Below, piece after piece: positions 33,617 to 41,012 of a DNA stretch of 41,188 nucleotides. The position numbers were made by a program, and so were the translations under genes. Below the pieces are notes generated by a model. The model was not told where the DNA came from and ran no database searches. It worked only from the letters and a program-made list of their open reading frames with translations. The stretch's first letter is position 1, and each line of letters opens with the position of its first letter. The stretch comes from a bacterium (GTDB taxonomy: Bacteria; JAGOBX01): NCBI GenBank assembly GCA_036733285.1, contig DAINAU010000011.1, positions 1 to 41,188 on the forward strand, given 5' to 3'.

Positions 33617-34394
33617 GTGTCTAATTGCAAAATTAACTAACGATATTTTTACGAAGCAAACGCGTATAAACAAGGCATTTGCTTCGTTTTTATACGAATA
33701 CTTATTAATGCAATTAGACGCTAGCGTAATGTATCAAAATAAAGTTGACATTTAAAGAAAAATGAAAGAAAAAAATTGAACGTCAAACAGCGCAGAGTTC
33801 AAAAATAATTCTTGAATGTATTGCCGGAAAATTGATTAAAGACATAGCCTGAAAATATAATGAAACAGAAACCACACTACGAAATCGTCAAGATAATTTT
33901 ATTACTAACGGAATTCAAGGATTATATGATTTGCCCCGTTCAGGAGCGCCTAAAAAATATAGTGAAGAATTTAGAAATAAAGTATTAAATGAATTAGAAG
34001 AAACGCCGACTTATGGTTTACACATTGGAATGGTTCAACGCTTGCTAAAATATTAAAAACATCTGCAGACGCAATATGGCGTTTGCTAAAAAAAGAAGGA
34101 ATATTTTTATCAAATCAACGGACTTGGAATATAAACACAGACCCTGAATTTACTGCTAAAACTGCAAATATTGTTGGATGATATTTAAATCCGTCTACAA
34201 ATGCAATAGTTATATCCGTAGATGAAAAAACAAGAATTTAAGCATTGTCAAGACCTACGGGTTACGTAAAAAAAAACTATAAAAAAATATATTAAATGTT
34301 ATAATAAAAATTGTCAGCCGTTTGTTTGACGTAAAAGAAAAGTTAAATGTTCTCTATTGAGAAATACACTTAAAAACTAATACAATTAGACACT
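33617..34394 (+). mobile_element. Decayed, non-autonomous IS630/Tc1-mariner-family element with 12-bp perfect terminal inverted repeats
   Basis: The TIRs are agtgtctaattg (33617-33628) and caattagacact (34383-34394). The internal frames translate to IS630-transposase N-terminal-like peptides (…LYDLPRSGAPKKYSEEFRNKVLNELEETPT…, …TLAKILKTSADAIWRLLKKEGIFLSNQRTWNINTDPEFTAKTANIVG.YLNPSTNAIVISVDEKTRI.ALSRPTGY), interrupted by stops and frameshifts. The length is about 780 bp where about 1.1 kb is expected. An extra inverted TIR copy lies at 33709-33722. Confidence 0.7.
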
Positions 34395-35195
34395 CGTTCC
34401 AATCAATGTAACTAAACCGCGTTCGATTTTTTTTTTGGTTATCTTATAACCTGCGTTTTCAAGATACGATATTACTTGTTCAGCCGTTAATCTTATTTTT
34501 ATATAACTGCTTATTTTCTGAATCCATTGATTATTTTTTCTGATATTTATAATATCATAAACTTTTATGTAATCGTCAAAATATTCTAAAAAGCAGGTAA
34601 AAATCGTATTATCATCGGATTTCACCGGAATAAATCTTTCTTCGTTTTTTAATTCATTAATTTGGTCGCGTAAAGTTAATACAATTTTTCCGCCCTCAAT
34701 TTGTTTGGCATAACATTGGAATATAAATTTTTTTAGCGATTCTTTATCGGAAAAATGCGCGATAGTATCGCCCATGCAAATAATAAGTTCGCAAGGTTCA
34801 ATAATATTTGAAACAGCGTTCAGTATATCGCCTTTTAAAATTTTAATATTATAATTCGAGACTTTAGTTTTAAGTTCTTCTATTAATTTGATTGAAAAAT
34901 CGACTGCTGTTACATTAAAACCAAGTTTGGCTAACGCTAATGTTTGAAAGCCGCAGCCTGCGCCAAAATCGTATGCTGATTTATTCGAAAATGGAATAAT
35001 ACTATTTTCTTTGAAAAAATTATACGCTTCCTGATTTTTATTTTCAAACCCGCCGCTCATCCACGTATAATATTCGGCAAGATGTTCATCATAATGTTTT
35101 AAAGTTTCCAATTTTATTATTCGCCTTGAAATATTTTTTATTGATTGATTTGATGTTTTGCGCAACAGCGTAATATGTAAATTATGTCGTTGCAT
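34386..35195 (-). CDS. Class I SAM-dependent methyltransferase (269 aa)
   Basis: Motif I, YDFGAGCGFQTLALAKLGFNVTAVDFS. The last codons and the stop lie within the IS630 right TIR. Confidence 0.7.
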   Translation of the reverse strand: MQRHNLHITLLRKTSNQSIKNISRRIIKLETLKHYDEHLAEYYTWMSGGFENKNQEAYNFFKENSIIPFSNKSAYDFGAGCGFQTLALAKLGFNVTAVDFSIKLIEELKTKVSNYNIKILKGDILNAVSNIIEPCELIICMGDTIAHFSDKESLKKFIFQCYAKQIEGGKIVLTLRDQINELKNEERFIPVKSDDNTIFTCFLEYFDDYIKVYDIINIRKNNQWIQKISSYIKIRLTAEQVISYLENAGYKITKKKIERGLVTLIGTSV

Positions 35196-35198
35196 ATA

Positions 35199-38241: not shown

Positions 38242-40138
38242 AGAGATAAGCGTAAGCGTTTAGATTTTTTTCGAATAATTCGAGGAAATGAATGCTTTCT
38301 TCAATTGTAATCTTCCGCTGCGCCACGCTTTTTTCAAGGTTTTCCCTTATATTTTTTAAAATCTCGGAACCGTTGTATTGAACATACTTCAAACTTTCGG
38401 AAATCGCGTCTCCAACAATTACAGTTTCGATTTTATAATCGTTTTTTTTATTAAACGTTATATGAACCGCGTTGGTGTCTCCGAATAAATTATGCATATC
38501 TCCCAGTATTTCCTGATAAGCTCCTATCAAGAAAAAGCCGATATAATAATCTTCTTTTGAATCAATATTATGGATGGGAAGATATTCGGTTTTTCCGTTT
38601 GGACCGACAAATTTTGTTATTTCGCCGTCAGAATCGCAGGTAATATCGGCTATTGAACAGATGACCTCGGGTTTTTCGTCAAGACGCTGAATAGGCATTA
38701 TAGGAAACAATTGATCTATCGCCCATGAATCAGGCAGGGATTGGAACAGCGAATAATTTGCAAAATAAGTTTTTCTCAAATGTATGTTGAAATTCTGAAG
38801 CTCCTCAGGAACATTTTTCATTTTTTCAATAATCGCGTATATTTTCTTAACTATTTTAGAACACAACAATTCTGCCGCGGCTCTATCGCTGAGATTAAGG
38901 TAACCCAAATTAAATAAACTTACGGCTTCCTGAATCAATTGGATTGTGTCGTGATAATCTTCCCGCAAAGAATGTTTGTCTATGCTATCGTAAATATCGA
39001 ATAGTTTTTTTACAGTCGGCGAAATCTTTTGGGATTTGGATTCGAAAAGTTTTAACGCCGGCGATGCTATCGGCGTTTTTGAATTTAAAATATTAGTTAC
39101 AAGCGCGGAATAATGAGCGGCAATCGCCCTGCCCGATTCGGATATTATGTTCGGACATTTTATATTTGCCTGATCGCAGATGCTTTTAACCTGAAAAATC
39201 ACATCGTTCGCGTATTCTTCTATCGAATAATTTACGCTTGAAAAATAACTCGATTTCGAACCGTCATAATCGACGCCGAGTCCTCCGCCGATGTCGATAT
39301 ATTCAAGTCCCACTCCGAGTTTTATCATTTCGGAATATATTCTTGCGCCTTCTATTAAAGCGTTTTTTATCTTATCGATTTTTGTAATCTGACTTCCGAT
39401 ATGAAAATGAACGAGTTTCAAACAGCCGAGCAATCCGCTTTTTTCAAGCAAATCAATAGCGGTTATTATTTCGGATATTTTTAATCCGAATTTTGATTCG
39501 TCGCCGCCGGACGAAGCCCATTTGCCCGTGCCTTTAGTGGAAAGTTTCACTCTGATTCCTAAATTAGGTTTTATCCCGCTTTTTTCAAACAAATGAATTA
39601 TTGATTGAAGCTCGAATAATTTTTCTATTACTATGGTTATTTTATATCCTATTTTTGTCGCGTATAATATGGTTTCAATATATTCCGAATCTTTGTAACC
39701 GTTGCATAACAAAGGAATGCTTTTATCAGAAGCGATGTAAAGAGCCGCTATCAATTCAGGTTTTGATCCGACTTCCAATCCTATATTATATTTTTTTCCG
39801 CATTTGGCGATTGCTTCCACAACCTGACGCTGTTGATTAACTTTGATTGGATAAAAAGTTTGATAATTTGCGGGATAATTATTCTCGTCTATCGCGTTTT
39901 TAAAAGCCTTGTTTATGCTTGCTATCCGGTCTTCGAGTATATTCATAAATCTTAATAAAATCGGCGGTTTGATTTTACGTTTGATTAAATCGTCTATCAA
40001 CGCTTTTAAATCTATAAAGTTTTTTGAGTTTTTGTTCGGATGCACGGATATGTTTCCTCTTTTATTAACAGTGAAATATCCGGCGCTCCAATTGTCAATA
40101 TTATAAAGTTTAGCTGAATCGTTAATATTCCATCCCAT
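38234..40138 (-). CDS. speA: Biosynthetic arginine decarboxylase (PLP-dependent)
   Basis: An N-terminal WxxxDSAKLYNIDNWSAGYFTVNKRGNISVHP, which is characteristic of SpeA; an alanine-racemase-like TIM barrel followed by a C-terminal beta domain. 634 aa. Adjacent to speB. Confidence 0.9.
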   Translation of the reverse strand: MGWNINDSAKLYNIDNWSAGYFTVNKRGNISVHPNKNSKNFIDLKALIDDLIKRKIKPPILLRFMNILEDRIASINKAFKNAIDENNYPANYQTFYPIKVNQQRQVVEAIAKCGKKYNIGLEVGSKPELIAALYIASDKSIPLLCNGYKDSEYIETILYATKIGYKITIVIEKLFELQSIIHLFEKSGIKPNLGIRVKLSTKGTGKWASSGGDESKFGLKISEIITAIDLLEKSGLLGCLKLVHFHIGSQITKIDKIKNALIEGARIYSEMIKLGVGLEYIDIGGGLGVDYDGSKSSYFSSVNYSIEEYANDVIFQVKSICDQANIKCPNIISESGRAIAAHYSALVTNILNSKTPIASPALKLFESKSQKISPTVKKLFDIYDSIDKHSLREDYHDTIQLIQEAVSLFNLGYLNLSDRAAAELLCSKIVKKIYAIIEKMKNVPEELQNFNIHLRKTYFANYSLFQSLPDSWAIDQLFPIMPIQRLDEKPEVICSIADITCDSDGEITKFVGPNGKTEYLPIHNIDSKEDYYIGFFLIGAYQEILGDMHNLFGDTNAVHITFNKKNDYKIETVIVGDAISESLKYVQYNGSEILKNIRENLEKSVAQRKITIEESIHFLELFEKNLNAYAYLFD

Positions 40139-40139
40139 A

Positions 40140-41012
40140 CTAATTACCCGCTATTAATAAAATTTCACGAAGTAGTTTCGCCGCAGTAACGCTGGAATTT
40201 CCAGATAAATCATAATGCGGCGACAATTCTACTATATCGGCTCCGCATATTTTTTTATCGCCGAGAATCTTCAGAAAATCAATTAGTTCTCTATATGTCA
40301 ATCCGCCGGCTTCAGGCGTTCCGGTTCCTGGCATTATCGACGGGTCGAGAACGTCGAGGTCTAAAGTTAAATATAAAAGCGAATCGCCGTCTAATCTATC
40401 GGCGATTTTTTTCAAATCAGCGGGAGATTCGGCTTTAGATATTTTAGAATTCGATTTGTGAAATTTGAATTCCTCTCTTGTTCCGGAACGTATGCCTATT
40501 TGAATTATTTCCGAGACGTTTTTTTCCCGAACCAATAAATTTATAACCGAAGCGTGGGACAGCCGGTTTCCAAGATAATTATCTCTCAAATCAAGATGCG
40601 CGTCAAATTGAATTATTACTATTTTTTTATCTGCGTTTTGTTCAATAATATTTTTTATAAGCGGATAGGTTATAAGATGCTCGCCGCCTATTCCTATTAT
40701 TTTTATATTCTTTTCAATCAATTCTTTATGATATTTTTTTATGACTTTAAGATTTTCTTCAGGGTCGCCGAAAATAACCGGAACGTCGCCGAAATCAGTG
40801 TAATATATGTCTTCTAAATCCTTGTCCAGCGTCGGCGAATATGTTTCTATGCTGTTTGAAACGACTCTTATTGCGTTTGGAGCAAACCTCGACCCTGGTC
40901 TGAAACTTGACGTGCAGTCATAAGGCATCCCTAATATTCCGATTTTTGTTTCAGAACTGAAAGCTCTTTGAGAAATGTATAAATTATTGTCGGTCAAAGA
41001 CATTTTCATCAT
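40140..41012 (-). CDS. speB: Agmatinase (arginase/ureohydrolase family)
   Basis: Manganese-binding motifs of the arginase fold (GGEHLITYP, DAHLD, SLDLDVLDP). 290 aa. The stop is 1 nt before the speA start. Confidence 0.9.
   Translation of the reverse strand: MMKMSLTDNNLYISQRAFSSETKIGILGMPYDCTSSFRPGSRFAPNAIRVVSNSIETYSPTLDKDLEDIYYTDFGDVPVIFGDPEENLKVIKKYHKELIEKNIKIIGIGGEHLITYPLIKNIIEQNADKKIVIIQFDAHLDLRDNYLGNRLSHASVINLLVREKNVSEIIQIGIRSGTREEFKFHKSNSKISKAESPADLKKIADRLDGDSLLYLTLDLDVLDPSIMPGTGTPEAGGLTYRELIDFLKILGDKKICGADIVELSPHYDLSGNSSVTAAKLLREILLIAGN

Follow-up and report, generated by a model that had tools for sequence, protein, structure and literature searches.

A lineage-restricted five-gene array in which a rare HprK-related kinase and a methyltransferase follow speB, speA and an orphan sigma-54 regulator

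What could join the two genes that lead from arginine to putrescine with a sigma-54 activator, a kinase related to HPr kinase (HprK) and S-adenosylmethionine (SAM)-dependent methyltransferases in what looks like a single transcript? The question is raised by the minus strand of a bacterial contig, DAINAU010000011.1 (assembly GCA_036733285.1, GTDB lineage JAGOBX01), whose 41,188 nucleotides are called the window here. A reading of this DNA made without database searches (the sequence-only reading) had described in it a six-gene operon with the order speB, speA, an NtrC-type enhancer-binding protein (EBP), an HPr-kinase-related P-loop kinase and two methyltransferases (here MT1 and MT2). All six open reading frames (ORFs) were found at the positions it had given, and profile searches bore out their identities, the matches of the kinase being weak. 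Comparison with related loci shows that the array is a real, lineage-restricted cluster of five of these genes, which carries a new, context-shifted HprK-related kinase subfamily together with a methyltransferase.

Homologous loci were recovered by searches with the kinase and with MT1. The genes speB-speA-EBP-kinase-MT1 recur in other genomes, which disposes of the possibility that the arrangement is peculiar to this one; the block runs without internal breaks through the window and L011, L001, L003, L013/L014 and L016, and the gaps between its genes mostly lie between −20 and +12 nt, with wider ones of 35–36 nt in L003 and of 87 nt in L001. Three contexts follow it: MT2 and a remnant of an IS630-family insertion sequence in the window, a gene for a YdjM-like protein and then rsmA in three loci (L001, L003 and L013/L014), and gpsA in one (L016, which reads (speA)-EBP-kinase-MT1-gpsA, speB being off the contig). 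Convergent genes come after the array of L001, and genes for RNase G and aspartate kinase lie upstream of the arrays of L003 and L013/L014 in divergent orientation. Relative to the window, the kinase is 66% identical in L001, 45% in L003 and 38% in L016, SpeA is 92% identical in L001 and 72% in L003 (BLASTP), SpeB 72% in L001, the EBP 80% in L001 and 60% in L003, and MT1 75% in L001, 56% in L003 and 55% in L013/L014. No homologue of MT2 is present in the relatives' arrays, so the conserved block consists of five genes, and the claim of two methyltransferases in the unit fails, since the place of MT2 is taken in the relatives by the YdjM-like gene and rsmA or by gpsA.

In one further lineage, L009/L021, the order is rplC, a strong terminator, kinase-MT1 and then convergent genes (kinase 41% identical to that of the window; MT1 of L009, 55%), and no speA, speB or EBP gene occurs within 10 kb of the pair. 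In all the loci recovered MT1 comes directly after the kinase, and the EBP is upstream of the kinase in five of the six lineages; kinase-MT1 is the sole invariant pair and, judged by gene order, the functional core. The rplC gene of L009 (9259–10003; TIGR03625, 269 bits) is a stand-alone gene for ribosomal protein L3 that lies outside an S10-type operon, and the terminator hairpin follows it, upstream of the pair. Scans for additional kinase loci gave two in genomes, one of them already recovered, and in metagenomes a single fragment of 1.2 kb.

The block is inherited within one small clade of uncultured bacteria, and the array might be no more than a gene-dense housekeeping stretch of one family-level clade, its genes sharing a transcript through chance packing, with no functional link among speBA, the regulator and kinase-MT1. 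The relatives' arrays do run without gaps into genes of unrelated function (in L001 the YdjM-like gene and rsmA overlap the genes before them by 8 and 4 nt), the SpeA identities point to a shallow clade, and the neighbours (RNase G, aspartate kinase, gpsA) are housekeeping genes; since rsmA, a gene for ribosome maturation, also belongs to these tight arrays, close packing in this clade cannot be taken to mean a shared pathway, and spacing by itself should not be used to define one. On the other hand, the five-gene block has come intact through at least three different rearrangements of its flanks, and the kinase and MT1 are adjacent even where they are separated from everything else, so that we consider mere synteny an unlikely account of the locus, though one to be kept in mind. 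The YdjM-like membrane protein (327–342 aa) is encoded between MT1 and rsmA at 6884–7867 in L001, 10823–11842 in L003 and 10760–11788 in L013 and is lacking in the window; the L001 and L003 proteins are only 40% identical, and no NCBIfam model matches it. Runs of N in L003 and L013 (for example at ~5296–5343 and ~11630–11700, respectively) split the calls of speB, the YdjM-like gene and rsmA, and these are assembly artefacts, not pseudogenes. The chemotaxis receptor and TonB-receptor genes of the window are, by our reading, hard to square with the 'Candidatus Dependentiae' label of L001.

The features of the window are listed in Table 1. SpeA and SpeB, the enzymes of the arginine-to-putrescine route, both reach equivalog thresholds in the profile search. 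When the junctions were read directly from the sequence, the close ones in the earlier description were confirmed at speB/speA (TAG-t-ATG, a 1-nt gap at 40138/40140), EBP/kinase (TGATG at 36856) and kinase/MT1 (a GTGA overlap at 35858–35861). The 8-nt overlap it gave for speA and the EBP gene (38234–38241) exists only with the TTG start of the latter, since it was taken from the longest ORF, and the ATG at 38229, the start chosen by gene callers and the most likely one, leaves a 4-nt gap instead. From this spacing, the five genes speB-speA-EBP-kinase-MT1 are probably co-transcribed; of the proposed six-gene operon, then, the first five genes stand as a tight unit that is conserved elsewhere, and the sixth is specific to the window. 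The sigma-70-like site upstream of speB is a candidate only, because sites of this kind are no more numerous in the region than expected from shuffling. The window gave no matches in Rfam or tRNA scans, and no small ORF or precursor peptide is shared upstream of speB or in the intergenic gaps among the window/L011, L001 and L003.

Table 1. Positions of the array genes and adjoining features in the window
Feature	Position	Strand	Details
speB, agmatinase	40140..41012	-	290 aa; TIGR01230 273.8 bits (cutoff 174.3), Pfam Arginase 1.8e-76; first gene of the conserved block
speA, biosynthetic arginine decarboxylase	38234..40138	-	634 aa; NF003763 852 bits (cutoff 369), TIGR01273 836 bits (cutoff 624)
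Sigma-54 enhancer-binding response regulator (EBP), orphan	36856..38229	-	receiver (REC), AAA+ and HTH_8 domains; 457 aa from ATG 38229, 461 aa if TTG 38241
HprK/PEPCK-fold P-loop kinase, rare subfamily	35858..36856	-	332 aa
MT1, class I SAM methyltransferase	35199..35861	-	220 aa; Methyltransf_11 and Methyltransf_23
MT2, class I methyltransferase	34386..35111	-	241 aa from TTG 35111; Methyltransf_25; outside the conserved block
IS630-family element, decayed	33616..34394	not assigned	terminal repeats and N-terminal half of a transposase pseudogene; adjoins and completes MT2
Sigma-70-like promoter candidate upstream of speB	41080..41107	-	TTGACT, 16 nt, TACAAT; consensus scan, 10/12 matches

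Both MT2 and the remnant of IS630 are best explained as additions made later and in the window only, and the conserved unit does not include MT2. The MT2 family has 411 matches in bacteria and archaea of ~240 aa each, whose members open with 'M-x-T-K-E-HY', and the NCBI annotation of MT2 is 241 aa long; from these lengths we place the start at TTG 35111, which corresponds to L29 of the long ORF in an alignment with homologues (alignment A4) and leaves a gap of 87 nt after MT1, and the 3-nt junction claimed at 35195/35199 is an artefact of the longest ORF. We also considered whether MT2 is orthologous to the last gene of the relatives' arrays. That gene encodes RsmA/KsgA (TIGR00755, 232 bits against a cutoff of 171 for L001:7864–8691), MT2 scores 19.2 bits with the same model, and BLASTP of MT2 against the array-ending gene of L001 and L003 gave no match, so this orthology is ruled out.

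The observation that an IS630 inverted repeat supplies the last codons and the stop of the distal methyltransferase is correct: the 12-nt terminal repeat AGTGTCTAATTG at 34383–34394 holds the last two MT2 codons (S, V) and the TAA stop. Copies of it occur at 33616, 33711 (one mismatch) and 34383, where 0.11 copies are expected, and two of them bound a 107-nt hairpin (33616–33722; 48-nt arms, 71% complementary), which looks like a miniature inverted-repeat transposable element and sits at the left edge of the remnant. The transposase pseudogene (33727–34260) comprises the N-terminal half only and is broken by one frameshift and by TGA and TAA codons in frame, which fall at positions that are usually conserved in IS630 transposases; its stitched translation scores 71 bits with NF033545 (cutoff 100) over profile positions 4–154 of 299. 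At the right end no flanking TA target duplication was seen by eye. The IS630-family DNA is a decayed remnant and not an intact element. Truncation of MT2 by the insertion was considered and rejected, since in alignment A4 the C-terminus is intact and only the final 1–2 residues differ.

The kinase has the fold shared by phosphoenolpyruvate carboxykinase (PEPCK) and HprK. An AlphaFold model built from 63 relatives (predicted local distance difference test score, pLDDT, 94.6) identifies this fold in Foldseek, and a sequence profile of the kinase reaches HprK chains at 1.7e-9, which removes the concern that it might lack an HprK-type fold. H151 and K172 are invariant among its relatives and G166, G171, T174, D189 and D190 are conserved in at least 90%, and these residues are the His, Walker A (GxSGxGK[ST]) and Asp-Asp elements of HprK. 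In a search of the HprK and HprK-related families the best matches are HprK-related, and all of them fall below curated cutoffs: Hpr_kinase_C (PF07475), 19.7 against 33.3 bits; PEPCK_ATP, 22.3 against 26.5; the HPr kinase/phosphorylase model TIGR00679, 20.7 against 240; and TIGR04352 and TIGR04355 (HprK-related kinase A/B), 45.2 and 35.4 against 200 each. The L009 orthologue reaches 60.7 against 200 with an HprK-related model and 19 against 125 with TIGR04249, and precomputed matches of these kinases to Pfam PF27840 (ScmC) are weak or faint. The kinase belongs to no curated HprK-related family, and its subfamily is rare: when 1.84 billion representatives were searched exhaustively with HMMER, 6 sequences came out at E<1e-30 as compared with 3822 at E<1e-3. 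PADLOC matched nothing in the kinase and found no more than generic similarity to AAA+ proteins and methyltransferases, so the array is not a known defence system.

The surroundings of more distant kinases suggest what such a pair may do. Three outgroup contexts could be read (that of a fourth kinase, P0014, is on too short a contig): P0004 and P0007 (25–27% identical) lie in clusters with PqqD, transglutaminase, Asn-synthase, ABC-transporter and NTP_transf_5 genes, and P0013 (26%) has PqqD, a transglutaminase-like gene and three tandem ORFs of 31–34 aa to one side of it and NTP_transf_5 to the other. These three ORFs (L017, 9441–9840) lie between the transglutaminase-like gene and P0013, have similar N-terminal halves and are candidate precursor peptides; no Asn-synthase-type cyclase is near this cluster for a ribosomally synthesised and post-translationally modified peptide (RiPP). 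MT1 holds the spot that the nucleotidyltransferase has in the outgroup peptide clusters. In lasso-peptide clusters, HPr-kinase homologues place a phosphate on the C-terminal Ser of the linear precursor, and in pseudomycoidin a nucleotidyltransferase then glycosylates the phosphate (PMC8498205); WbdD first adds a phosphate to a terminal mannose and afterwards methylates that phosphate (PMC3482155). The remark of the sequence-only reading that no RiPP partners are visible holds more widely, since no precursor peptide, PqqD or RiPP recognition element (RRE), protease, cyclase or radical SAM maturase was found near the kinase in the window, L001, L003, L009, L013 or L016.

The reading that we tentatively prefer, with a probability of roughly 0.4, is that the kinase and MT1 work as a pair that tailors, in two steps, a shared substrate not encoded in the block, and that the pair is co-transcribed with housekeeping speBA. 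The kinase would transfer a phosphate to a hydroxyl of the substrate, which from the kinase's relatives would most likely be a peptide or protein, and MT1 would methylate the same substrate, possibly at the phosphate itself. SpeB and SpeA, the housekeeping route from arginine to putrescine, would share a transcript with the pair, though not necessarily its chemistry, and the regulator, an orphan competent for phosphorylation on Asp, would act at sigma-54 promoters elsewhere.

Several observations weigh against this reading. The evidence for co-transcription is spacing. SpeA is 72–92% identical among the block-bearing loci, which are all fairly close relatives, and part of the synteny may therefore reflect shared ancestry rather than selection. 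The association of the EBP with the pair in five of six lineages and of speBA with both in four (with the end of speA also seen in L016) is real in this clade, and the tailoring reading lacks an explanation for it. The whole kinase superposes better across both domains on PEPCK, a small-molecule enzyme, than on HprK. The MT1 model (AlphaFold2; pLDDT 87.7) found generic class I methyltransferases and no substrate assignment in a fold search, its nearest solved folds being uncharacterised or small-molecule N-/O-methyltransferases; one MT1 relative (40% identical) has no kinase neighbour, and another (34%) lies in a sugar or glycan cluster, so the substrate need not be a peptide. Finally, no conserved small ORF and no RRE or PqqD partner was found in or next to the block, and no substrate was identified.

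Some of these same observations could be turned to a modified-polyamine pathway, the first of two possibilities raised by the sequence-only reading, in which the kinase and MT1 make a phosphorylated and/or N-methylated agmatine, putrescine or guanidino/amino intermediate under the control of the regulator. The model of the kinase superposes best on a small-molecule enzyme, the folds nearest to MT1 include small-molecule methyltransferases, and speB-speA stand directly and tightly upstream of EBP-kinase-MT1 in four lineages (a fifth, L016, shows the end of speA only). We nonetheless found no positive evidence for it and regard it as distinctly unlikely: kinase-MT1 stands alone in L009/L021 without speA or speB nearby, the outgroup kinases with readable contexts belong to peptide clusters, MT2, on which the proposal partly relied, is not conserved, the clade is shallow, and the relatives' arrays also hold rsmA and the YdjM-like gene and are thus of mixed function. 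No kinase with this fold is known to us that has amines or guanidines as its substrates.

The second possibility was a signalling module in which the kinase modifies a sigma-54 activator that has no sensor domain of its own. This premise is wrong, as the EBP has a canonical receiver domain (Response_reg, residues 12–121, 86 bits) in front of Sigma54_activat (146–312, 232 bits), AAA_lid_14 and HTH_8 (43 bits), the three scored Pfam matches being above gathering scores; inspection by eye found the acceptor pocket D16, D17 and D59 together with T87 and K109, and a GSFTGA loop, a variant of GAFTGA. With its complete receiver domain and residues it is an ordinary phosphorylatable response regulator. 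Its best NCBIfam model is AtoC (equivalog NF008469), and it is not an AtoC orthologue because it scores 440.2 bits against a cutoff of 714. No histidine kinase gene is next to it in the window or in any related locus, five loci being covered. On the operon strand no -24/-12 promoter was found in or before the array in any locus: GG-N10-GC does not occur upstream of speB, and searches for the stricter TGG-N9-TGC across the arrays, for TGGC-N8-TGC and for TGGCAC-N5-TTGCW with up to 2 mismatches gave nothing but matches in coding sequence; the targets of the EBP probably lie at sigma-54 promoters elsewhere. The window also holds a divergent pair (10452–14267), one gene of which encodes a 7TMR-DISM histidine kinase and the other a further sigma-54 activator (REC-PAS-AAA+), so sigma-54 regulation is wider in this genome.

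A signalling role can still be framed without that premise, with the HprK-like kinase replacing the missing histidine kinase and marking the regulator or a partner on Ser/Thr, MT1 adding a second mark, and the two tuning sigma-54 transcription and perhaps SpeA. The absence of an adjacent histidine kinase gene in any locus would fit, as would the position of the EBP gene directly upstream of the kinase in five of six lineages (in the window with the TGATG overlap). Ser residues of proteins or peptides are the phosphorylation targets of true HprK and of its relatives in lasso clusters (PMC8498205), and E. coli AtoC was identified as an antizyme that inhibits polyamine-biosynthetic decarboxylases (PMC1784093). 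Nevertheless, the complete receiver domain makes an unlinked histidine kinase the simplest input, the AtoC score does not support orthology, and L009/L021 keep kinase-MT1 without a nearby regulator, and we judge this role improbable at about the level of mere synteny. A more specific proposal, that the pair marks the regulator or SpeA/SpeB by phosphorylation on Ser and by methylation, so that an HprK/PEPCK-fold kinase that has moved out of its RiPP context would serve with a methyltransferase as the input of an orphan sigma-54 regulator, would couple it to polyamine synthesis and would control an NtrC-type activator by a route other than a histidine kinase, seems to us very unlikely.

Elsewhere in the window, a string of short ORFs in a low-GC (0.26) stretch at 9287–10182 (minus strand) resembles a decayed transposase. 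At 10404–10487 a 42-nt unit in two copies (97% match) runs across the 3' end of the histidine kinase gene next to it. Three ORFs have no Pfam match at E<=1e-5: 100–1941 (minus strand, 613 aa), 26308–28377 (minus strand, 689 aa) and 28487–29098 (plus strand, 203 aa).

If the kinase and MT1 do form one module, the kinase would represent an HprK-related subfamily outside both the phosphotransferase system (PTS) and RiPP biosynthesis, for which we found no described case, and its partnership in one clade with an orphan sigma-54 regulator and speBA would make a small and concrete system of two enzymes with few candidate substrates.

How does the array compare with systems that are already known? 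The EBP shares with NtrC-family response regulators the architecture of a REC domain, a sigma-54 AAA+ domain and a Fis-type helix-turn-helix, and its setting differs from that of AtoC in that no adjacent AtoS-like kinase, ato genes or sigma-54 promoter are found in the operon. The kinase differs from HPr kinase/phosphorylase in that the HprK N-terminal domain was not detected, and the 41-kb window contains neither an HPr gene nor PTS genes. HprK-related kinase A/B and ScmC of the SynChlorMet type are the curated families with which it scores best, and their defining partners, a PqqD-like protein and radical SAM/SPASM maturases, are absent here. With the HPr-kinase homologues of lasso clusters (paeninodin-type; ThcoK and SyanK) the likeness goes further, including the PEPCK/HprK fold, the H, GxSGxGK[ST] and DD motifs, a similar length (~310–350 aa) and alignment over the full length (26% identity to P0013), whereas the precursor, PqqD/RRE, B2 protease, cyclase and ABC exporter of those clusters are not near the kinase, and the partner there is an NTP_transf_5 nucleotidyltransferase in place of the class I methyltransferase found here, in a pair that stands behind speBA and a sigma-54 regulator. 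WbdD of E. coli O9a has a eukaryotic-type kinase fold, has its two activities fused and acts on a polymannose glycan, and no sequence relationship to it was detected, WbdD being absent among the MT1 profile matches against PDB sequences; the likeness to it is one of function, a kinase and a class I methyltransferase that act in sequence on one substrate, as we tentatively propose for the kinase and MT1.

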